From Acidobacteriota bacterium (lineage in GTDB: Bacteria > Acidobacteriota > Thermoanaerobaculia > Multivoradales > J023), in the NCBI GenBank assembly GCA_039194425.1, contig JBCCVZ010000005.1, positions 293,144 to 357,143 of the forward strand: DNA of 64,000 nucleotides. The letters run 5' to 3'. Positions 3,144 to 58,295 of this stretch are shown here, in pieces. Positions within the stretch are counted from its first letter, which is position 1. The number at the start of each line of letters is the position of its first letter. Under the pieces are notes generated by a model that saw nothing but the letters and a program-made list of their open reading frames with translations, was not told the DNA's origin and did not search any database. The position numbers were made by a program, and so were the translations under genes.

Positions 3144-4994
3144 ATGCCCAAGCAGGCCGTTCTCTACGACGAGAAAGCGATCCAAACGCTCGATCCGCTG
3201 ACCCATATCCGCAAGCGCACCGGCATGTACATCGGGCGTTTGGGCGACGGCACGGATCCCGACGACGGCATTTACGTGCTGCTCAAGGAGGTCGTCGACA
3301 ACGCCATCGACGAGTTCATCATGGGCAAGGGCAAGCGGATCGAGATCGAGCGCGACGGCGACACCGTGACCGTGCGCGATTTCGGACGCGGCATCCCGCT
3401 CGGCAAGGTGGTCGATTGCGTCTCGCGAATGCACACCGGCGGCAAGTACAACGACGACGTCTTTCAGTTCTCGGTCGGCCTCAACGGCGTCGGAACCAAG
3501 GCGGTGAACGCGCTGTCGACCGACTTCGAGGTCTGCTCGTGGCGCGAGGGCAAGTTCAAGCGCGCGCACTTCGTCCGCGGCAAGCTGCAGGCGGAGAAGG
3601 GCGGCAAGGAGACGACGGCGCGCGACGGCACGTTCGTGCGCTTCACGCCCGACCCCGAGATCTTCGGTGAGTACGGCTGGCGCGAAGAGCACATCGAGGA
3701 CCGTCTGCGCTACTACGCCTTCCTCAACACCGGGCTGACGCTGGTGTACAACGGTCGCGGCTTCGCGTCGAAGGGCGGCCTGCGCGACCTGCTCGCCGCG
3801 GAGCTCGGCGACGGTGAAGGCCACGGCGGCGGCGAAGGACGCGGCGACGTCGAGCCGCTCTACGACATCGTCCACACCAAAGAAGACAAGCTCGAGTTCG
3901 CCTTCACCCACACCAACAGCTACGGCGAGAAGTACTACAGCTTCGTCAACGGCCAGCACACGTCGGACGGCGGTACACACCAGAGCGCGTTCCGTGAGGG
4001 CCTGCTGCGTGGCATCAACGAGTTCGCCGGCAAGAGCTTCGCCGGCGCCGACGTGCGCGACGGCCTGATCGGCGCGGTGGCCGTGAAGATCCAGGAGCCG
4101 GTGTTCGAGAGCCAGACCAAGAACAAGCTCGGTTCGACCGACGTGCGGCCCTGGATCGTCGAAGCGACGCGCCAGTCGGTGATGGTGTGGCTGCACAAGA
4201 ACGCCGACGTCGCCGAGCGCGTGATGCGCAAGATCGAGCAGAACGAGAAACTGCGCAAAGAGCTGCACGCGGTGAAGAAGAAGGCGCGCGAGCGCGCCAA
4301 GGCGACGGCGATCCGCATCCCCAAGCTCACCGACTGCAAGATCCACTTCGACACCAAGAAGCCGCGCGCCGACGAAAGCACGATCTTCCTCACCGAGGGC
4401 GACTCGGCGGGCGGCTCGATGGTGCAGTCGCGCGATGTCGATACACAGGCGATCTTCTCGCTGCGCGGCAAGCCGCAGAACACCTACTCGCTCGACCGCG
4501 CCGCGCTCTACAAGAACGAAGAGCTGTACAATATCATGCGAGCTCTCGGCATCGAGGAGTCGGTCGACGACCTGCGCTACAACCGGGTCGTTCTCGCCAC
4601 CGACGCCGATGTCGACGGCATGCACATCCGCAATCTCTTGCTGACCTACTTCCTGCGTTACTTTGAAGAGCTCGTCCTGCGCGGCCATGTCTACATCTTC
4701 GAGACACCGCTCTTCCGTGTGCGCAACAAGAAGGAAACCGTCTACTGCTATAGCGAGGCCGAGCGCCGCGCCGCCACCGAGCGCCTGCGCGGCCCGGAGA
4801 CGACCCGCTTCAAGGGCCTGGGCGAGATCTCGCCGCACGAGATGAAGCGCCTCATGGGCGCCGACATCCGCCTGGTGCCGGTGCAGATCAAAAAGATGAG
4901 CGAAGTCACCCGCGCGCTCGAGTTCTACATGGGCAAGAACACCCCCAAGCGCAAGGACTTCATTGTCGAGAACCTGATCTCGGAGGCGGTGTGA
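3144..4994 (+). CDS. parE: DNA topoisomerase IV subunit B (type IIA, GyrB/ParE family)
   Basis: HIRKRTGMYIG, EVVDNAIDE, GLNGVG, TEGDSAGG, DADVDGMHI and RFKGLGE motifs; RBS AGGAG upstream; 616 aa. Confidence 0.9.
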   Translation: MPKQAVLYDEKAIQTLDPLTHIRKRTGMYIGRLGDGTDPDDGIYVLLKEVVDNAIDEFIMGKGKRIEIERDGDTVTVRDFGRGIPLGKVVDCVSRMHTGGKYNDDVFQFSVGLNGVGTKAVNALSTDFEVCSWREGKFKRAHFVRGKLQAEKGGKETTARDGTFVRFTPDPEIFGEYGWREEHIEDRLRYYAFLNTGLTLVYNGRGFASKGGLRDLLAAELGDGEGHGGGEGRGDVEPLYDIVHTKEDKLEFAFTHTNSYGEKYYSFVNGQHTSDGGTHQSAFREGLLRGINEFAGKSFAGADVRDGLIGAVAVKIQEPVFESQTKNKLGSTDVRPWIVEATRQSVMVWLHKNADVAERVMRKIEQNEKLRKELHAVKKKARERAKATAIRIPKLTDCKIHFDTKKPRADESTIFLTEGDSAGGSMVQSRDVDTQAIFSLRGKPQNTYSLDRAALYKNEELYNIMRALGIEESVDDLRYNRVVLATDADVDGMHIRNLLLTYFLRYFEELVLRGHVYIFETPLFRVRNKKETVYCYSEAERRAATERLRGPETTRFKGLGEISPHEMKRLMGADIRLVPVQIKKMSEVTRALEFYMGKNTPKRKDFIVENLISEAV

Positions 4995-5022
4995 GACGCA
5001 GACGCCACGAGAGGGCCATTGC

Positions 5023-5703
5023 ATGAGCTCGACCGTTCCGACCGAGCCTTTCGTCGCGGTGATCGGCGACCTCGTCGGCTCACGCCAGATCGAAGACCGT
5101 GCTGCGGCGCAAGAGCGGCTGGTCGAGGTGCTCGAGCTTCTGAACACGAAATACCGAGAGCACGTCGCCTCGCGCTTCGTGGTCACGTTGGGCGACGAGT
5201 TCCAGGGATTGCTCGCGATCGATGCGCCGGTCGACGGTCTCTGGTGGACCTACCAGCGTGAGATGCCCTACCCCACGCACTTCGGCTTCGGCTTCGGTAC
5301 CCTCGCCACTCCCCTCAAGGCCGAGGCGCTGGGCATGGATGGACCGTGCTGGTACGCGGCGCGGTCTGCCCTCGAGCTCGCTGAAGTCGAAGCTCGGAGG
5401 TTCACCGTCGAGATTGTCGGAGAACCAGCGACGTCGCGCCGACTCAACAAGATCATCTCGCTCATTGATCGAACGATGGAGCGCTGGACCCCGAAACAAC
5501 TCGATACTGTGCTCCTTCTCCAAGAGCTCGAGTCCCAGCTCGAGGTCGCCGAAAGTAGAGGTGTCAAGGCGCAAACGGTCAGTGGGTCGCTGGAAGCGAG
5601 TTTGGGACAAGACGTCCTGGACTCGATCAGCGGAGTGCTGGAATTGGCACAGTCCATCTCAAGAACCAGTCCATCTCAAGAACAACGAGTCGAAATCGGC
5701 TGA
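5023..5703 (+). CDS. SatD-family protein (nucleotide-cyclase-like palm domain plus C-terminal HTH)
   Basis: AVIGDLVGSR, TLGDEFQGLL and MDGPCWYAARSAL motifs; C-terminal WTPKQ...SQLEVAESRGVKAQTVS HTH-like segment. Confidence 0.8.
   Translation: MSSTVPTEPFVAVIGDLVGSRQIEDRAAAQERLVEVLELLNTKYREHVASRFVVTLGDEFQGLLAIDAPVDGLWWTYQREMPYPTHFGFGFGTLATPLKAEALGMDGPCWYAARSALELAEVEARRFTVEIVGEPATSRRLNKIISLIDRTMERWTPKQLDTVLLLQELESQLEVAESRGVKAQTVSGSLEASLGQDVLDSISGVLELAQSISRTSPSQEQRVEIG
5650..5683. repeat. Perfect 17-bp tandem duplication CAGTCCATCTCAAGAAC x2 near the satD 3' end
   Basis: Read directly from the sequence. Confidence 0.9.
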
Positions 5704-5848
5704 TCGAAAGTTAATCAGCCGAAATCGGCTGATCGAAAGTTAATCAGCCGAAATCGGCTGATCGAAAGTTAATCAGCCGAAATCGGCTGATGCGCCAAGA
5801 ATCAATCGAGCACGGCAGATTCAGTGAGATCGTCCGAATTCAGTTGGC
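5685..5848. repeat. Array of 20-bp palindromic units (ATCAGCCGA-AA-TCGGCTGAT) at 28-29 bp period; perfect 29-bp tandem core at 5691-5791
   Basis: Units start at 5685 (3 mismatches), 5714, 5743, 5772 (perfect), 5801 (14/20) and 5829 (13/20); spacers CGAAAGTTA x3, GCGCCAAGA, TCAGTGAG. Confidence 0.9.
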
Positions 5849-5878
5849 CCATCAACAACCTGCTGAAGACTTCGCCCG

Positions 5879-6679
5879 ATGAGCCCGCCATTGCCCACGA
5901 TCCTCCTCGTCGCTGCCTATGCCGTGACCGAGTATGGAGTTCCCCAGACTCCGGGACAACCGATCCGGCTCAAGGGGGCATTTTGGCGTGCCGGAGGATT
6001 CTTGGCGCTCGCCGGGGCTTTGATCGCGCCATGGCTGACGCCGGTGTCGATCGCGCTTCTCGGCGTCGTCGCGATCATCCGAGAGCTGTCTCGCTCTGGA
6101 GTCGCCTGGCTCGACAACCGGATCCCGAACCATCAGCTCTACTGGCAATCCGTCCTCCTCGGAATGCACCTTTTGCTTCTGCTGAGCTGGTTGAAGATCT
6201 GCGGCGAGCAGCTCGCACGCGACGCGCCGACAGGCTTCCGACGGGTTCTCGTCGAACCCCTTCTCGGATCGACGCTCCTCGAGTTGACGGGGCTCATCGT
6301 AGCCGTCGGGGGAGGGACCGTCTTCATCCGAACTCTGCTGAGCCAGATCGGGCGACCTCGGGAGGCCGACAGCCACAGTCAGCAAGCAAGCAGCTTTCCG
6401 GACGAGGAAGAGATCCGAATGGGCAGGATCATCGGCAACCTCGAGCGAGTTCTGATCTTCGTGCTAGCCCTGAACGGGCAGCTCGACGCCATCGGTCTCG
6501 TTCTCGCTGCGAAGTCCCTCGCCCGATTCAAAGAGCTCGAAGACAAGCGCTTTAGCGAGTACTACCTCCTCGGTACCTTGAGCAGCACGCTCTTCGCCCT
6601 GTTCGCGGCATGGTTGACCGCTGCGGCGACGGACGCGTTCTACCCCGGCGCACACGGAATTCTGACCTCCGTGCTGTAG
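5879..6679 (+). CDS. DUF3307-like integral membrane protein (usual SatD partner)
   Basis: Multiple TM helices; C-terminal GRIIGNLERVLI...AAKSLARFKEL...FSEYYLLGTLSS motif; lies directly after satD. Confidence 0.72.
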   Translation: MSPPLPTILLVAAYAVTEYGVPQTPGQPIRLKGAFWRAGGFLALAGALIAPWLTPVSIALLGVVAIIRELSRSGVAWLDNRIPNHQLYWQSVLLGMHLLLLLSWLKICGEQLARDAPTGFRRVLVEPLLGSTLLELTGLIVAVGGGTVFIRTLLSQIGRPREADSHSQQASSFPDEEEIRMGRIIGNLERVLIFVLALNGQLDAIGLVLAAKSLARFKELEDKRFSEYYLLGTLSSTLFALFAAWLTAAATDAFYPGAHGILTSVL

Positions 6680-6708
6680 CGGATGCCTACTCTCTCGAAA
6701 GGACTCGG

Positions 6709-8628
6709 ATGACCTACGTCGAGCCGCTGATGCGGCGCAATTTTCTCGAGTACGCGAGCTACGTGATCGTCGATCGGGCGATTCCGGATCTGCGCGACGG
6801 CTGCAAGCCGGTGCAGCGGCGGATCCTGTGGACGCTCTTTGAGATGGACGACGGGCGCTTCCACAAGGTGGCGAATGTGATCGGCGAGTCGATGAAGCTG
6901 CATCCGCACGGCGACGCGTCGATCGGCGACGCGCTGGTGGTGCTGGCGAACAAGGAGTACTTCATCGAGCGGCAGGGTAACTTCGGGAACATCCTGACGG
7001 GACACCCCGCGGCGGCCTCGCGCTACATCGAGTGTCGGCTCACCGACCTCGCCCGCGACACGCTCTTCCAGCCCAAGCTGACGCAGATGCAGGCGTCGTA
7101 CGACGGGCGCAAGGACGAGCCGGTCTTCCTGCCGGTGAAGCTGCCGGTGACGCTGATGCTCGGCATCGAAGGCATCGCCGTCGGTATGTCGACACGGGTG
7201 CTGCCGCACAACTTCGCCGAGCTGCTACAGGCTCAGATCGATCTGCTCGAGGGGCGTGGGGTCTCCCTGCTGCCGGACTTCCGGCAGGGCGGCCTGATGG
7301 ACGCGGAGGAGTACGACGAAGGACGCGGCAAGGTGCGGGTGCGTGCGCGGGTCGAGACGTCGAAGGATCGCAAGACGCTCACCATCCGCGAGATCCCGTA
7401 CTCGACGACCACCGAGAGTCTGATCGCGTCGATCGAGCAGGCGAGCCAGAAAGGCAAGATCAAGGTCGCCTCGATCGACGACCGCACCGCCGAGGACGTC
7501 GAGATCGTCGTCCACCTGCCGCGCGGAGTCTACGCCGACGAGGTCGAGCCGCGGCTCTACGCCTACACCCAATGCGAGGTCTCGATCACCTCGAACCTGA
7601 CGCTGATCTTCAACGACCGCCCGGCCGAGCTGTCGGTCACGGAGGTGCTCGAGGCGCTCACCACGCGCCTGCGCGACCAGATCCGCGCCGAGCTTCAGCT
7701 CGAGCTCGGCGAGCTCGAGGACCGCCAGCACTGGCTCACTCTCGAGCAGATCTTCATCGAGAACCGGGTCTACAAGCGCATCGAGACCGCCAAGACCGCC
7801 GACGCGGTACGCGCCGAGGTGTGGACGGGGATGAAGCCGTACGAGGAGTTCTTCGTCCGGCCGATGGTCGACGACGACGTCGACCGCCTGCTCAAGATCC
7901 CGATTCGGCGCATCTCGCTCTACGACATCGAGAAGTGGCGCAAAGAGATCGACGACATCGTCGCCCGCATCAAGACCACGCGTGGCAAGCTGAAGCGGCT
8001 GACGCGCACGACCATCACGTACCTCGAGGGCGTGCTGGAGAAATACGGCTCGCAGTGGCCGCGGCGGACGACCATCGAGAGCTTCGACGTGGTGTCGAAG
8101 AAGGAGGTAGCGCGGGCCAACCTCAAGCTCTCGTACGATCGCGAGACCGGCCTCTTCGGAACCGACGTCAAGGGGTCGGAGTTCGAGCTCACGCTCAGCG
8201 AGTACGGCAAGGCGCTCGTCGTGTCCAAAGACGAAGGCTGGTACAAGGTGGTCGGCGTCGAAGAGAAGGTCTTCGTCGGTCAGAAGGTGCTCGAGATCGT
8301 GCCGTTCGACGACGACCAAGGCGTCGTGCTCACCTACGTCTACCGCGACGCCGAGCGCAATGGCTGGGGCAAGCGCATCCACGTCACAGGGTTCATCCGC
8401 GACAAGGAGTACGACCTGGTGAAGGATCGTGACGGCAAGGTCGTGCGTTTGTGGGTCGGCGAGCCGGCGATCGAGGTGCACATGGCGTACGTGCCGAAGA
8501 AGCGCCAGCGAGTCAACGAGAGCACGTATGACCTGCGCGAGCTCCGGGTTGTCGGCCTGGCGGCGCGTGGCCAGCGGATGGCTCCGAAGCCGGTGCAACG
8601 CTTCAAGTTCCGCAAGGCCGGCGGCTGA
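6709..8628 (+). CDS. parC: DNA topoisomerase IV subunit A (GyrA/ParC family)
   Basis: EYASYVIVDRAIPDLRDGCKPVQRRIL, HPHGDASI, QGNFG and catalytic AASRYIE; start moved to ATG 6709 (AAAGGA upstream). Confidence 0.9.
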   Translation: MTYVEPLMRRNFLEYASYVIVDRAIPDLRDGCKPVQRRILWTLFEMDDGRFHKVANVIGESMKLHPHGDASIGDALVVLANKEYFIERQGNFGNILTGHPAAASRYIECRLTDLARDTLFQPKLTQMQASYDGRKDEPVFLPVKLPVTLMLGIEGIAVGMSTRVLPHNFAELLQAQIDLLEGRGVSLLPDFRQGGLMDAEEYDEGRGKVRVRARVETSKDRKTLTIREIPYSTTTESLIASIEQASQKGKIKVASIDDRTAEDVEIVVHLPRGVYADEVEPRLYAYTQCEVSITSNLTLIFNDRPAELSVTEVLEALTTRLRDQIRAELQLELGELEDRQHWLTLEQIFIENRVYKRIETAKTADAVRAEVWTGMKPYEEFFVRPMVDDDVDRLLKIPIRRISLYDIEKWRKEIDDIVARIKTTRGKLKRLTRTTITYLEGVLEKYGSQWPRRTTIESFDVVSKKEVARANLKLSYDRETGLFGTDVKGSEFELTLSEYGKALVVSKDEGWYKVVGVEEKVFVGQKVLEIVPFDDDQGVVLTYVYRDAERNGWGKRIHVTGFIRDKEYDLVKDRDGKVVRLWVGEPAIEVHMAYVPKKRQRVNESTYDLRELRVVGLAARGQRMAPKPVQRFKFRKAGG

Positions 8629-8681: not shown

Positions 8682-9095
8682 ATGAATCCCGTTCCGATGG
8701 AGAGTTGCCCGCCGATGAGTGACGAGAGCTCCGCAGACCATGACTCCTCAGACCATGACTCCTCAGACCATGAAGAACGACGCAGCAGCCCGCGTGTCGA
8801 GAAGATCAACTTGGTGCAGGTGAGCCGCTTCGACGAAGAAGGGTTCCGCGCCGACCTGGCCGCCGGACGCACGGTGAACCTGTCGCGCGGCGGGGTTCGC
8901 ATCGAGCTTCACCATTCGCTGCCGCTCCGTTCCGAAGTGCGCATCGACGTCGCGGTCGGAGAGCAGGTGGTCGGCGTCGATGGCAAAGTCGTTCATCTGC
9001 AGGCGGTGGGCGAGGATCGCTGCGAGATCGGCATCGCGTTCGAGAATCTCGACGCCGAGACCGAGGCGCTGATCGCCGAGTACATCGACGACTGA
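8682..9095 (+). CDS. PilZ-domain protein (putative c-di-GMP receptor)
   Basis: ERRSSPR (RxxxR) and NLSRGG (D/NxSxxG) motifs; N-terminal DHDSS repeats from a 15-bp repeat at 8734-8773. Confidence 0.85.
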   Translation: MNPVPMESCPPMSDESSADHDSSDHDSSDHEERRSSPRVEKINLVQVSRFDEEGFRADLAAGRTVNLSRGGVRIELHHSLPLRSEVRIDVAVGEQVVGVDGKVVHLQAVGEDRCEIGIAFENLDAETEALIAEYIDD

Positions 9096-13506: not shown

Positions 13507-14592
13507 ATGTCCGAGCTCCAGACTCCGCTCCTCGACTGCCACCGCGACGCCGGCGCCAAGCTGGTCGAGTTCGCCGGCTGGACGATGCCTGTGCGCTATG
13601 CGTCCGAGACCGACGAGCACCATGCGGTGCGCGAGCGCGCGGGTCTCTTCGACGTCTCGCACATGGGGGAGTTGCACCTGCACGGTGCCGGCGCGGCCGA
13701 CTTCCTTCAGCGGCTGACGCCCAACGACGTCACCAAGCTCGCGCCCGGGCGCGCCCATTACAGCGCTCTGCTCACGCCCGAAGCGACGTACATCGACGAT
13801 CTCTTGGTGTATCAGCTGGGCGAGGACGATTACCTGCTGGTCGTGAATGCCGCAAACCGCGAGACGGATCTCGACTGGCTGCGTTCGCACCAGCCGCCGT
13901 GCGCTCTCGACGACGTCTCGGACGACTACGCACTGATCGCGCTCCAGGGTCCGGCGGCTCCGGGGATCCTGGCCGATCTCACCGAGGTCGATCTCGACGC
14001 CCTGCGCTACTACCACTTCGTGCCCGAGGCACGCGTCGCCGGCGTGCCCGTCCTGCTTTCGCGCACCGGCTACACCGGGGAAGACGGCTTCGAGCTCTAC
14101 CTCGCGCCGCAGCATGCGCCGGGAGTGTGGACCGCGCTGCTCGAGGTCGGCGCCGACGACTTGCTGCCCGCGGGCCTGGCGGCGCGCGATACGCTCCGTC
14201 TCGAAGCTGGGATGGCTCTCTACGGCCACGAGATCGACCGCACGACAACTCCCTACGAGGCCGGCCTCCGCTGGACCGTCAAGCTCAAGCAGGGCGAGTT
14301 CGTCGGCCGCGACGTGCTCGTCCGGCAGAAGGCAGAGGGGGTCGGGCGCAAGCTCGTCGGCCTCGAGGTGACCGGGCGCGGCATCGCGCGCCAAGGGCAT
14401 GCCGTGCTGGTCGACGGCGAAGAGGTCGGCAGCGTGTGCAGCGGCACGCGCAGCCCGACGCTCGAGAAAGTGATCGCTACCGCCTACGTGCCGACGGCGA
14501 GCGCTGAGGTCGGCACCGAGGTCGAACTCCAGGTGCGCTCGAGGCGCCTGCCGGCGGTCGTCGTGCCGCTCCCCTTCTACAAGCGAGCCTGA
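13507..14592 (+). CDS. gcvT: Glycine cleavage system aminomethyltransferase T
   Basis: FAGWTMPVRY, GLFDVSHMGE, SRTGYTGEDGFE and ARDTLRLEAG motifs. Confidence 0.96.
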   Translation: MSELQTPLLDCHRDAGAKLVEFAGWTMPVRYASETDEHHAVRERAGLFDVSHMGELHLHGAGAADFLQRLTPNDVTKLAPGRAHYSALLTPEATYIDDLLVYQLGEDDYLLVVNAANRETDLDWLRSHQPPCALDDVSDDYALIALQGPAAPGILADLTEVDLDALRYYHFVPEARVAGVPVLLSRTGYTGEDGFELYLAPQHAPGVWTALLEVGADDLLPAGLAARDTLRLEAGMALYGHEIDRTTTPYEAGLRWTVKLKQGEFVGRDVLVRQKAEGVGRKLVGLEVTGRGIARQGHAVLVDGEEVGSVCSGTRSPTLEKVIATAYVPTASAEVGTEVELQVRSRRLPAVVVPLPFYKRA

Positions 14593-14621
14593 GCTCGAGT
14601 ACAAGCGAGCCTGAGCTCGAG
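14578..14621. repeat. Perfect 22-bp tandem duplication spanning the gcvT stop codon
   Basis: TACAAGCGAGCCTGAGCTCGAG x2. Confidence 0.9.
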
Positions 14622-15537: not shown

Positions 15538-16581
15538 TCAGCGACGACCGGAGACGAGCATCGCGTCGCCGTAGGAGTAGAAGCGGTAGCCGCGCTCGAC
15601 CGCTTCGCCGTAGGCGGTGAGCACCCGCTCGCGCCCGGCGAGCGCGGAGACGAGCATCAGCAGAGTGGAGCGGGGCAGGTGAAAGTTGGTGAGAAGCAGG
15701 TCGACGACGAGGAAGTCGTCGCCCGGCTTGAGGAAGAGCTCGGTCCGTCCGGCGCCGGCGGCGACGCCCTCCCCGGAGGTGCCGCGTGCGGCGCGCGCGG
15801 CGGCTTCGAGCGTGCGCACGACCGTGGTGCCGACGGCGACGATCCGGCCACCGCGTCGCCGCGTCGCCTCGATCGCCGCCGCGGTTGCGGCCGGGACGTC
15901 GTAGCGCTCGGCGTCCATGCGATGTTCGGCGACCTCGTCGGCGGTCACCGGCCGAAAGGTCCCTGGGCCGACATGAAGCGTCACCGACGCGCGCTCGACG
16001 CCGGCCGCCGCGAGGCGCTCGAGCAAGACGTCGTCGAAGTGCAGTCCAGCGGTCGGTGCGGCGACGGCGCCGTCGTGGCGGGCGAACACGGTCTGGTAGG
16101 TCGTGCGATCGGCCGCATCGTCGGCGCGCTGAATGTATGGCGGCAGCGGCACGTGCCCGGCGGTGTCGAGATGTGGCTCGATCTCGACGTCGAAGCGCAG
16201 ACGCGTCATCTCACCGTCGCGGCCCAGGATCTCCGCCGTCGCCGGTGCGTCGTCGATTGTGACCCGCACACCCGGGCGGAGTCGCTTGGCGGGGCGCGCC
16301 AGGGCTTGCCACTCACGCGGCGCGGTTTTCTCGAGCAGCAGGAGCTCGGCTCGTCCGCCTCCCGGCCGACGGCCGAAGAGGCGCGCCGGGACCACCCGCG
16401 TGTCGTTGACCACCAGCAGGTCGCCCGCCCGCAGCAGCTCCGGCAGGTCGGCGACGCGGCGATGGCGCGCGGTGCTGTCGGGCGGCTCGTCGAGCACCAA
16501 CAGACGCGAGGTCCCGCGCGGCGCCGGCCGCTGGGCGATCGCGTCGTCGGGCAGCGAGTAGTCGAAATCGTCGGTCCGCAT
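15538..16581 (-). CDS. queA: S-adenosylmethionine:tRNA ribosyltransferase-isomerase
   Basis: PLPPYI, YQTVFA, AAPTAGLHF, TLHVGPGTF, TNFHLPRSTL and YRFYSYGDAM motifs. Confidence 0.97.
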   Translation of the reverse strand: MRTDDFDYSLPDDAIAQRPAPRGTSRLLVLDEPPDSTARHRRVADLPELLRAGDLLVVNDTRVVPARLFGRRPGGGRAELLLLEKTAPREWQALARPAKRLRPGVRVTIDDAPATAEILGRDGEMTRLRFDVEIEPHLDTAGHVPLPPYIQRADDAADRTTYQTVFARHDGAVAAPTAGLHFDDVLLERLAAAGVERASVTLHVGPGTFRPVTADEVAEHRMDAERYDVPAATAAAIEATRRRGGRIVAVGTTVVRTLEAAARAARGTSGEGVAAGAGRTELFLKPGDDFLVVDLLLTNFHLPRSTLLMLVSALAGRERVLTAYGEAVERGYRFYSYGDAMLVSGRR

Positions 16582-16603
16582 GAGGTGTCGGTCCGCATGA
16601 GGT
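16570..16603. repeat. Perfect 17-bp tandem duplication spanning the queA start codon and RBS
   Basis: GTCGGTCCGCATGAGGT x2. Confidence 0.9.
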
Positions 16604-16620
16604 GAGGTGCAGGGAGTGGC

Positions 16621-58211: not shown

Positions 58212-58295
58212 GGACCAAAGTCTGTCGGGACCACAGTCTGTCGGGGACCAGAGTCTGCTGGGACCACAGTCTGCCGGGACTACAGTCTGCCGGGA
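58212..58295. repeat. 16-bp tandem repeat x5 (GGACCACAGTCTGYCG) upstream of the crotonase operon
   Basis: Units at 58212, 58228, 58245, 58261 and 58277. Confidence 0.88.

Follow-up and report, generated by a model that had tools for sequence, protein, structure and literature searches.

One question raised by the satD locus of this Acidobacteriota genome is what reads the array of six 20-bp mirror-image sites, set at a pitch of 29 bp (5685..5848), that separates satD from the membrane-partner gene. The earlier note on this DNA had proposed either a cooperative operator for SatD or a structured RNA. The window examined here is the whole stretch of 64,000 nt that was analysed. Comparative data support the first proposal, 29-bp phased palindromes being found beside satD in two sets of loci, and we consider it likely that the array serves SatD as a cooperative operator and that it grew recently as whole units were duplicated, with SatD predicted to bind it. 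The features of the locus are collected in Table 1.

Array, neighbouring genes and strain variation

Table 1. Coordinates of the genes and repeats at the satD locus (positions in the window).
Feature	Position	Strand	Description
parE/gyrB-like type IIA topoisomerase subunit B	3144..4994	+	Pfam DNA_gyraseB, Toprim, HATPase_c, DNA_gyraseB_C; NCBIfam
satD	5023..5703	+	226 aa; PF16264 E 7.5e-25; stop codon within array unit 1
17-bp perfect tandem duplication	5650..5683		3′ end of satD; TRF; polymorphic between strains
Array unit 1	5685..5704		17/20; left arm decayed, right arm perfect; overlaps satD stop codon
Array core	5691..5791		perfect 29-bp tandem, 3.5 copies; TRF; apparently recently duplicated
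Array unit 2	5714..5733		perfect 20-bp palindrome
Array unit 3	5743..5762		perfect 20-bp palindrome
Array unit 4	5772..5791		perfect 20-bp palindrome
Array unit 5	5801..5820		decayed, 14/20; in phase (+29); 5/8 arm pairs remain
Array unit 6	5829..5848		decayed, 13/20; spacing 28; 3/8 arm pairs remain
Partner gene	5879..6679	+	266 aa, all-helical membrane protein; AF2 pLDDT 87.4
parC-like type IIA topoisomerase subunit A	6709..8628	+	PF00521; NF007209; start inferred

The repeated unit is the 20-mer ATCAGCCGAAATCGGCTGAT, which consists of 8-nt arms about a 4-nt centre and is found without mismatch at 5714, 5743 and 5772, exactly where perfect palindromes had been claimed, and with three mismatches at 5685. 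The centres are spaced by 29, 29, 29, 29 and 28 bp, and the spacers, given previously as 8-9 nt, measure 9, 9, 9, 9 and 8 nt, three of them being identical. The copies at 5685, 5801 and 5829 had been described as decayed and in register; they are real and in phase, but those at 5801 and 5829 are no longer palindromes, retaining 5 and 3 Watson-Crick pairs of 8. TRF reports 5691-5791 as a tandem of period 29 with 3.5 copies, 100% matches and a score of 202, the highest among its 90 rows for the window. None of 100 shuffles of the window contained a match to the 20-mer; outside the array a 14/20 match occurs at only 2 of ~63,975 window positions, and a 13/20 match at 13. A 15/20 match at 6323 was discarded, as it falls in a conserved coding part of the partner gene and is not palindromic. 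Elsewhere in the 8.1-Mb genome a search allowing up to three mismatches returned a single 3-mismatch match, a 17/20 near-palindrome inside a long ORF on contig 4, which was set aside as chance; with matches confined to the locus and this one intragenic site, a dispersed repeat (REP, BIME or MITE) was rejected. A CRISPR array was likewise rejected, the spacers being only 8-9 nt long, with three identical, and no cas-like family being present among the scanned neighbours.

The contigs of the source run break inside the array, as they might if it had been misassembled, a possibility that the earlier note had said would undo its reading. Against this, a 286-nt contig from run X2, which belongs to another study, spans 5690-5975 with no gaps and 4 substitutions, two of which lie inside the array. 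The related strain that it represents carries a number of units equal to the window's, and the array is therefore not an assembly artefact. The 3.5 central units are identical even in their spacers, and the flanking units have diverged, which bears out the suggestion of recent growth by 29-bp duplication: the core appears to have been enlarged recently, whole unit by whole unit, beside older, diverged sites. Whole-unit amplification is also seen in G004 and in the KSB1 locus L042, where the sequences are unrelated to the window's. The locus would illustrate the growth of such arrays, in which entire 29-bp units are duplicated and the phase is kept. The 3′ end of satD varies between strains as well. 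A contig from run X3 is without one 17-bp copy of the 5650..5683 tandem; beyond residue 209 the disordered tail of SatD is then read in another frame, and the one-copy allele gives a SatD of 224 residues with its stop at 5712-5714.

The gene upstream, parE, ends 28 bp before satD, which leaves no room for a separate satD promoter region, and the partner stop codon is followed after 30 bp by parC. The start of parC at 6709 was chosen because the NF007209 match begins at residue 34 of the longest ORF; orthologues with this start are 72-75% identical. In satD-less congeners parE and parC are adjacent, and the satD-partner cassette occupies a variable slot between them. On the plus strand from 4900 to 6700 neither a sigma-70-like promoter nor a terminator was found; one terminator-like site lies on the minus strand inside satD. 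A hexamer promoter scan of the array regions of the window and of locus L015 gave nothing with a score of 7.5 or more. Intrinsic terminators were rejected as an identity for the repeats, there being no terminator site in the array, where the stems are followed by CGAAAG and no T-run. A search of Rfam with 5000-6700 at E values up to 10 yielded only sub-threshold microRNA-type matches, the best of which (23.8 bits against a gathering score of 95) was rejected as a microRNA model that fits any run of hairpins. Transcription probably reads through the array here. Given the tight linkage of partner and parC, and the adjacency of parE and parC in satD-less congeners, a tight block at the array would also cut parC expression.

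The partner protein has no match in Pfam, NCBIfam or PADLOC, and none to DUF3307 (PF11750) at E values up to 10, although all nine partners tested from outside the acidobacterial-type group reach that model. Its earlier label of DUF3307 is correct in that profile comparison reveals full-length homology with SatD partners of the DUF3307 type (hhalign probability 99.9, E 3.1e-34), but it does not extend to the Pfam model itself. Twelve DUF3307 partners share the invariant residues H18, D22, Q26, H44, H75, D79, D104 and H108 in the N-terminal half; these His/Asp/Gln columns are unconserved in seven acidobacterial-type partners, including that of the window. Fold searches with the partner gave a best Foldseek E value of 0.92 and a best Z of 8.4 in a wide VIA-align search, the latter to generic helical bundles and hence uninformative for a helical protein.

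Phased palindromes at other satD loci

Two surveys were made, covering 80 genome satD loci and 72 distinct metagenome loci. Scanning the metagenomes with the single SatD protein returned no relatives, and with a five-sequence alignment 80 loci, none closer than 42% identity, so that the window's clade gained no members; the tree is that of a quick IQ-TREE search. A strong palindrome lies between -300 and +30 relative to the start of satD in 68 of the 80 genome loci; among control regions of equal size 25-31 have one. Similarity to this palindrome is highest at -29 (0.426), +29 (0.400) and +58 (0.348), the background being 0.290 (sd 0.022), and the control regions have no 29-bp peak. The metagenome loci behave similarly, with a palindrome in 57 of 69 upstream regions and peaks at +29 (0.543), -29 (0.504), +58 (0.393) and -58 (0.362) over a background of 0.271 (sd 0.033). 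Periodic palindromes at other satD loci, the absence of which was to have counted against the original proposal, are thus present in two independent locus sets.

In-phase partner sites were identified in 41 of 82 loci, at exactly 29 bp in 36, at 28 bp in five and at 30 bp in none; the remaining 41 loci have no array as we define it, nor do 46 of 102 coupled satD-partner pairs. Strict chains of at least three sites occur at six loci and at no other place in 464,012 bases; all lie upstream of satD, and 12 of their 13 spacings are 29.0. In the window's clade, which comprises the window, G003, G004, G001 and G018, the first three of these relatives carry 29-bp phased palindromes of other sequences between satD and the partner gene, while the clade member L007 has, by eye, only two or three weak sites ~30 bp apart.

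The usual layout is an array overlapping the promoter upstream of a coupled satD-partner operon. At AT-rich loci the arrays overlap or abut sigma-70-like promoters, although our count of promoter positions is biased towards proximity, since the search covered only the region downstream of the array start. The upstream arrays resemble that of the window in having a PF16264 regulator, 20-bp palindromes (8-nt arms, 4-6-nt centre), an exact 29-bp period, 3-6 units and locus-specific half-sites. The window differs from them in that its array follows satD and precedes the partner, away from the satD promoter, that satD is attached to parE, and that three of the units are very recent, perfect duplicates. 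The window array is satD-adjacent and has at least three palindromes at 29 bp, and it does not overlap a satD promoter. Placement between the two genes, as in the window and three other lineages (it is seen in G001, G003, G004, L042, L114/L120/L128 and L132), is a new architectural variant; in L042 a partner promoter, TTGACT-16-TATAAT, comes directly after the array. Since the array lies either upstream of satD or between satD and its partner, the partner is always downstream of it. The two-gene unit ranges from Bacillota to Acidobacteriota and Halobacteriales, and the arrays follow satD across phyla, into archaeal-type lineages and through the change of position. In the literature we found no description of satD-flanking arrays and nothing on DNA binding by SatD.

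SatD as the candidate binding protein

The naming of satD was confirmed by the Pfam match. The AF2 model of the protein (pLDDT 95.7) reveals a GGDEF/class III cyclase-like palm domain at about residues 10-131, and a confident tri-helical helix-turn-helix (HTH) at the C-terminus (helices 157-169, 172-179 and 183-193); there is also a weak sigma-70 region-4-like match. Foldseek matches comprise GGDEF, cyclase, Cas10 and mCpol structures (among them 5euh, E 8.2e-5; 1ybu, E 4.0e-4; 9pd0, E 1.1e-3) and the C-terminal fragment of Rv2242. Across 82 sequences the palm possesses 16 invariant residues, including D16 and the turn G57-D58-E59-F60, which sits at the position of the GGDEF hairpin. Acidic residues are thus placed at the first strand and at the hairpin turn of the palm fold, as in GGDEF and class III cyclase-like palm proteins, catalysis being only putative.

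The half-sites vary from locus to locus and loosely follow the recognition helix of SatD. Of 10 loci with TGCAT half-sites, 9 have Arg at window position 188; all 7 loci with GAATAAT-type half-sites have Lys there, and congeners with different SatD helices have different half-sites. Loci L007 and L042 share both the helix RQSVRD and the half-site GTAAGG, though their palm domains are only 44% identical. In Mantel tests the operator correlates with the recognition helix (r 0.47, p 2e-4), also with the palm partialled out (partial r 0.23, p 2e-4). Shared descent confounds this signal: with the HTH partialled out, palm and operator are correlated as well (partial r 0.25, p 0.001). The restriction of the motif to the satD locus, in an 8.1-Mb genome with a single SatD, also counts in favour of a SatD operator.

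We propose that each 20-bp palindrome would accept one SatD dimer through its two C-terminal HTH motifs, and that the fixed 29-bp centre-to-centre spacing would allow neighbouring dimers to touch, so that occupancy would become cooperative and switch-like. As satD lies within 28 bp of parE and the array stands ahead of the partner, SatD would here control not its own gene but, presumably by repression, the partner and perhaps also the parC gene that follows.

Several known systems come close to such an arrangement. In E. coli, HipB binds the hipBA operators, a case of multi-operator autoregulation with cooperative control of a growth-arresting partner gene. The resemblance lies in evenly spaced palindromes within one control region, each presumed to serve a dimer of an HTH protein; SatD differs in its unrelated fold (palm plus HTH), its 29-bp period and its membrane-protein partner. 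Regulators of the Lrp/AsnC type, which wrap DNA, act as oligomers of dimers on arrays of palindromes set at regular intervals of about three helical turns, but SatD possesses no Lrp/AsnC domain and the spacing in the window is exact rather than approximate. The PucR/CdaR-like proteins, whose GGDEF-like domain is regarded in PucR-like regulators as a ligand sensor, resemble SatD in carrying a C-terminal HTH behind a palm-like sensor domain, and Foldseek aligns 228 and 242 columns, nearly the whole SatD model, with 9f80 (the Rv2242 fragment) and 3onq (E 2.4e-4 and 2.3e-3). TM-scores of 0.30-0.34 and 13-15% identity set them apart, as do a separate Pfam family and the much shorter length and membrane-protein pairing of SatD. 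The sat operon of Streptococcus mutans (ylxM-ffh-satC-satD-satE), the source of the family name, likewise has satD behind an essential housekeeping gene (ffh there, parE in the window) and a SatD family member adjoining a membrane partner.

Panoptes, an mCpol cyclase with a membrane effector, also pairs a minimal palm-domain protein with a membrane protein, and the mCpol structures 9pd0 and 9mnr are among the fold matches of SatD. Genetic data recall guard modules of the toxin-antitoxin kind: the passages on satD in a study of S. pyogenes (PMC11323703) describe an accessory gene, present in 178 of 249 genomes, essential by Tn-seq in emm1, emm28 and emm49 strains, the sole accessory gene to be essential wherever present; of the S. 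mutans sat operon they give a link to acid tolerance and note little study elsewhere. Such essentiality when present is compatible with SatD repressing a harmful neighbour or acting as its antidote. Unlike Panoptes and guard modules, SatD has an HTH and a DNA array, no PADLOC match, and a rarity on plasmids (2 of 72,556 records, both haloarchaeal) and, with the query used, no match in 50,697 phage records.

Alternative explanations and implications

The fold of SatD suggests that the array might act as a DNA scaffold, the 29-bp pitch assembling a SatD filament in which palm domains meet and a nucleotide signal governs the partner, with transcriptional control secondary. The invariant palm residues, the matches to GGDEF and class III cyclases, Cas10 and the Panoptes mCpol, and a period that from Bacillota to Acidobacteriota is exact (29, never 30), suggesting a protein-protein lattice rather than loose helical phasing, are consistent with this, and essentiality in S. 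pyogenes would fit the loss of an inhibitory signal. We nevertheless regard it as unlikely, since SatD catalysis and oligomers are purely putative, arrays at promoters are explained by a plain operator, the GGDEF-like plus HTH architecture resembles that of PucR-like regulators, and PADLOC recognizes neither protein. Its extension to a guard module, in which DNA-bound SatD would make or sense a nucleotide that silences a harmful membrane effector, akin to Panoptes or toxin-antitoxin systems, is doubtful to the same degree. Were the scaffold a reality, the switching threshold would be set by the number of units, which whole-unit duplication has changed at this locus as well as in G004 and L042. 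An element acting at the RNA level, with hairpins in a parE-satD-partner-parC message serving in intercistronic processing, stabilising or attenuation, appears quite improbable. Read-through is plausible, as no terminator or promoter was found around the array, and the folding energy as RNA is -12.2 kcal/mol (z -5.1) for a perfect unit and -80.5 kcal/mol (z -4.5) for the 241-nt region; the alternative hairpin register across the 9-nt spacer, pointed out in the earlier note, is also present (-10.6 kcal/mol). In most family members, however, the array overlaps or precedes a promoter; changes in 121 units from 41 loci are one-sided in 160 cases and compensatory in 21; and G-T mismatches on the sense strand are not enriched over A-C (52 vs 36). 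The decayed units 5 and 6 keep 13-14 of 20 bases in phase, yet their folding energies (-0.2 and -1.4 kcal/mol) do not surpass those of shuffled sequences; no Rfam family reaches threshold and no T-run follows the stems. The structured-RNA proposal is accordingly disfavoured.

That another factor, such as a global regulator or nucleoid protein, binds the sites and the linkage to satD is incidental seems to us very improbable. SatD binding is admittedly a prediction, and phylogeny confounds the covariation of half-site and HTH, but from a global factor one would expect conserved sites and numerous targets, whereas the half-sites differ between congeners with different SatD helices, within this genome the motif belongs to the satD locus alone, and the array follows satD across phyla, archaeal-type lineages and a change of position. 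There is equally little to commend the view that the core is non-functional, slippage-prone DNA, a neutral expansion of a decaying relic if not the misassembly considered above. The polymorphic 17-bp x 2 perfect tandem, 8 bp upstream, does mark the region as prone to slippage, and the module could be degenerating, the partner having lost the DUF3307 signature residues. Yet duplication kept the exact 29-bp phase of the family, G004 and L042 have amplified whole units of unrelated sequence, and the ORFs of satD and the partner are intact, with confidently predicted folds.

As a SatD operator array, the relocated repeats of this locus would tell apart two roles that the usual operon leaves entangled: the gene that is always behind the array is that of the membrane partner, and not satD. 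The strictly conserved 29-bp lattice would predict, from sequence alone, the binding site of every member of the SatD family, and may provide a concrete experimental handle on a two-gene unit that is mechanistically unstudied.

The array and its integrity

The array belongs to a + strand gene order of parE-like gene, satD, array, membrane-protein gene (the SatD partner) and parC-like gene. Its core is the 20-mer ATCAGCCGAAATCGGCTGAT, with 8-nt arms and a 4-nt centre, for which the earlier note had described three exact copies and three decayed ones in register, with 8-9 nt spacers. Sequence matching and TRF bear this out: 5691-5791 is a tandem repeat with a period of 29 bp, 3.5 copies and 100% matches, and the spacers between the six units are 9, 9, 9, 9 and 8 nt. 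Among the roughly 63,975 window positions outside the array, a score of 14/20 is reached at only two and 13/20 at 13, and zero matches to ATCAGCCGAAATCGGCTGAT were found in shuffled versions of the window. Elsewhere in the 8.1-Mb genome of the window, G000, the motif has a single near-match, at 17/20, on contig 4 (219126-219145; 1501-1520 of locus L004). This site has a perfect left arm, lies in a long ORF that runs to 878 codons or more and was not counted as a second SatD target. A further match, within the partner's conserved coding region (6323), lies downstream of the unit at 5772 by exactly 19 x 29 bp and is probably due to chance.

Features of the window in and around the array
Feature	Position	Strand	Remark
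parE-like gene	3144-4994	+	B subunit, 616 aa
satD	5023-5703	+	PF16264, E 7.5e-25
Perfect 17-bp tandem duplication	5650-5683		3' end of satD
Array unit, decayed	5685		17/20 (three mismatches)
Array units, exact	5714, 5743, 5772		ATCAGCCGAAATCGGCTGAT
Array unit, decayed	5801		14/20, in phase
Array unit, decayed	5829		13/20, in phase, spacing 28
Partner gene	5879-6679	+	266-aa membrane protein
Single unit match	6323-6342		15/20, non-palindromic
parC-like gene	6709-8628	+	A subunit, ~639 aa; start placed at residue 34 of longest ORF, where family match begins
Tandem repeat	8729-8773		15 bp x 3, start of PilZ-domain ORF
Tandem repeat	14578-14621		22 bp x 2, perfect
Tandem repeat	16570-16604		17 bp x 2, perfect
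Tandem repeat	58212-58295		16 bp x 5.2

Contigs of four public sequencing runs were aligned on 5300-6300 as a check for an assembly artefact, a possibility raised in the earlier note. Short-word contigs of X1, the probable source run, end within the array, as expected because its repeats are perfect. In X2, a run from a separate study, a single 286-nt contig spans 5690-5975 gap-free with four substitutions, which excludes an artefact; it therefore represents a related strain with an equal number of units that are not all identical any more, the substitutions at 5733 and 5748 being inside units and both one-sided. A contig of run X3 is missing one copy of the 17-bp tandem, so the duplication is polymorphic between strains. 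It alters the frame of the SatD tail past residue 209, giving 226 aa as assembled and 224 aa with a single copy (stop at 5712-5714); this disordered tail is the sole low-confidence part of the SatD model.

Periodic palindromes at other satD loci and their probable ligand

Relatives show this geometry built on different sequences. Genomes G001 and G003 possess four and three units, respectively, on GTCAGGCC, with every spacing in G001 being 29 bp, and G004 (locus L016) has at least 3.7 perfect 29-bp units, its contig ending inside the array. In G036, from another family, three units spaced by 28 bp lie across the satD start. Across 80 genomic satD loci drawn from many phyla, the region from -300 to +30 of the satD start contains a strong palindrome in 68, versus 25 and 31 in equal-sized control regions; similarity to that palindrome peaked at -29 (0.426), +29 (0.400) and +58 (0.348), the background being 0.290 (sd 0.022), with flat controls. 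Six loci, in every case upstream of satD, had strict chains of at least three sites (29.0 bp exactly for 12 of the 13 spacings), and none turned up elsewhere in 464,012 bases, in a scan that omitted the last ~240 bases of each locus and so missed the G004 array. A relaxed criterion gave in-phase partner sites at 41 of 82 loci; their distance was exactly 29 bp in 36, 28 bp in five and 30 bp in none. The periodicity is confirmed by a second, independent survey of 80 metagenome loci, 72 with distinct satD DNA, where a palindrome is found in 57 of 69 upstream regions and the peaks are +29 (0.543), -29 (0.504), +58 (0.393) and -58 (0.362) against a background of 0.271 (sd 0.033), again with flat controls. 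Similar periodic palindromes, to which the earlier note had looked as a check, are thus found at other satD loci, with a 29-bp phase in two independent sets. Both the G004 array and a duplication at L042, a KSB1 locus (3640-3706), contain perfect 29-bp units unrelated in sequence to the window array, so whole-unit amplification recurs; together with the 3.5 identical copies in the window this upholds the proposed recent expansion by 29-bp duplication.

The proposal that the array is a SatD operator gains support from this cross-locus comparison; SatD would bind it cooperatively, as dimers. The half-sites are locus-specific, as expected of a dedicated regulator. Operator distance correlates with recognition-helix distance (r 0.47, p 2e-4; partial r given the palm domain 0.23, p 2e-4); the converse partial correlation, of palm domain with operator, reaches significance as well (0.25, p 0.001), and part of the relationship is therefore due to shared descent. 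Two pairings are suggestive: TGCAT half-sites with Arg at window position 188 (9/10 loci), and GAATAAT-type half-sites with Lys at the same position (7/7). L007, from the window's family, and L042 have in common the helix RQSVRD and the half-site GTAAGG, their palm domains being only 44% identical; closer relatives of L007 have other helices and other half-sites. In the SatD model (pLDDT 95.7) a tri-helical HTH comes after a palm domain; all of the 82 sequences compared retain D16 and the G57-D58-E59-F60 turn unchanged. Foldseek matches include GGDEF domains, class III cyclases, Cas10 and Panoptes mCpol, while the regulators 9f80 and 3onq, which combine a GGDEF-like domain with an HTH, match across nearly the whole length. 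On a less likely reading, the 29-bp lattice would be a scaffold for palm-domain pairing rather than a mere operator.

A structured RNA had been offered as the alternative, and the two hairpin registers described in the earlier note are real (-10.6 kcal/mol for pairing across the spacers vs -12.2 for the 20-mer); such a second register is unavoidable for any array of identical palindromes. Four lines of evidence point to a DNA-level site rather than an RNA hairpin. Arrays in AT-rich loci adjoin or overlap clear -35/-10 pairs, and the centre of the proximal site is the first base of the -35 hexamer in 9 of 31 loci with a good promoter, a count biased towards proximity by scanning only downstream of the array start. 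Comparing 121 units from 41 loci with the best unit of each locus, a reference that somewhat inflates the one-sided class, gave 160 one-sided changes, against 21 double changes that are compensatory and 16 that are not. G-T mismatches (52) show no significant excess over A-C mismatches (36). The decayed window units retain 13-14 of 20 bases and their phase while folding no better than shuffles, and the two X2 substitutions inside units are one-sided. The RNA reading is accordingly disfavoured.

Relocated layout and the slot between parE and parC

Where the gap between satD and the partner gene is at most 20 bp (102 loci), an array was detected in 56, upstream of satD; where it exceeds 60 bp (eight loci), the array lies within the gap in three and upstream in none. 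No surveyed locus has both. Whatever the layout, then, the array stands ahead of the partner gene. The between-gene form is found in the window's clade (five SatD sequences, 99% SH-aLRT), in loci L114, L120 and L128, where satD begins 12 bp past the upstream gene and three sites lie ahead of the partner, in L132, and in L042, where a TTGACT-16-TATAAT promoter, serving a bona fide DUF3307 partner, comes directly after two perfect 29-bp units. A quick tree requires four changes of layout, only one of which is forced by well-supported branches. Autoregulation of satD would seem dispensable where another operon, here that of parE, feeds it. In this GC-rich clade, scans of the array and its surroundings picked out neither a sigma-70-like promoter nor a terminator. 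The partner gene is closely coupled to parC, and relatives have parE next to parC, so transcription probably runs through the array. Array-bound SatD would then be a roadblock, or act at an internal promoter that the scans did not recognise, and a tight block would affect parC as well.

SatD was detected with the window query in eight of 40 relatives, including congeners G001, G003 and G004 and the sister-genus G018; the order parE-satD-partner-parC is seen in G003 and G018, where the contig extends far enough. Congeners without satD are unlike each other in this gap. In G007 parE lies ~65 bp from parC. The 130-bp gap of G005 retains coding sequence for 22 residues of the C-terminal motif of the partner (L098, 3453-3518; 59% identity, E 3.5e-4), and is evidently a deletion scar of a cassette formerly present. 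G002 (L100, 4117-5942) and G006 (L101) carry a different gene pair. One encodes a 383-aa AAA_21 ATPase, with AriA and AbiLi models as its best PADLOC matches, and the other a 225-aa protein that weakly matches DUF4276. The gap is thus a swapping site with a defence-like alternative occupant, and since its contents vary among congeners the topoisomerase neighbourhood of the satD cassette is probably incidental. The topoisomerase pair is itself short: the A subunit matches NF007209 (635 positions) end to end, the family models for gyrA (~800 aa) and parC (~735 aa) being much longer.

The partner protein and the significance of satD

The partner has no match in Pfam, NCBIfam or PADLOC, and acidobacterial-type SatD partners are wholly missed by Pfam. 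The DUF3307 label of the earlier note consequently fails Pfam's own test; the kinship it implied stands, a profile of seven such partners matching one of twelve DUF3307-type SatD partners over the full length (probability 99.9, E 3.1e-34), with the likeness greatest in the C-terminal half. The invariant His, Asp and Gln of the DUF3307 half are not kept in the acidobacterial-type partners (window, L015, L007, L039, L065, L073 and L089). The model is an all-helical membrane protein with no clear solved relative. Given the loss of these signature residues, the activity that the module first had may have been altered or may be gone.

Although accessory in S. pyogenes (178/249 genomes), satD scored as essential when emm1, emm28 and emm49 strains were screened with transposons, and is reported as the single accessory gene essential in every strain tested (PMC11323703); the authors describe satD as unstudied outside S. 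mutans. Neither SatD DNA binding nor 29-bp arrays were found in the searched literature on SatD, DUF3307 and the sat operon. Essentiality only where the gene is present would fit a product that represses a harmful neighbour or serves as its antidote, and on the published screens is a phenotype awaiting a mechanism. The present locus contributes the relocated layout of the array, an example of whole-unit amplification in progress, and a position in a swapping slot where the alternative cargo is defence-like in looks.
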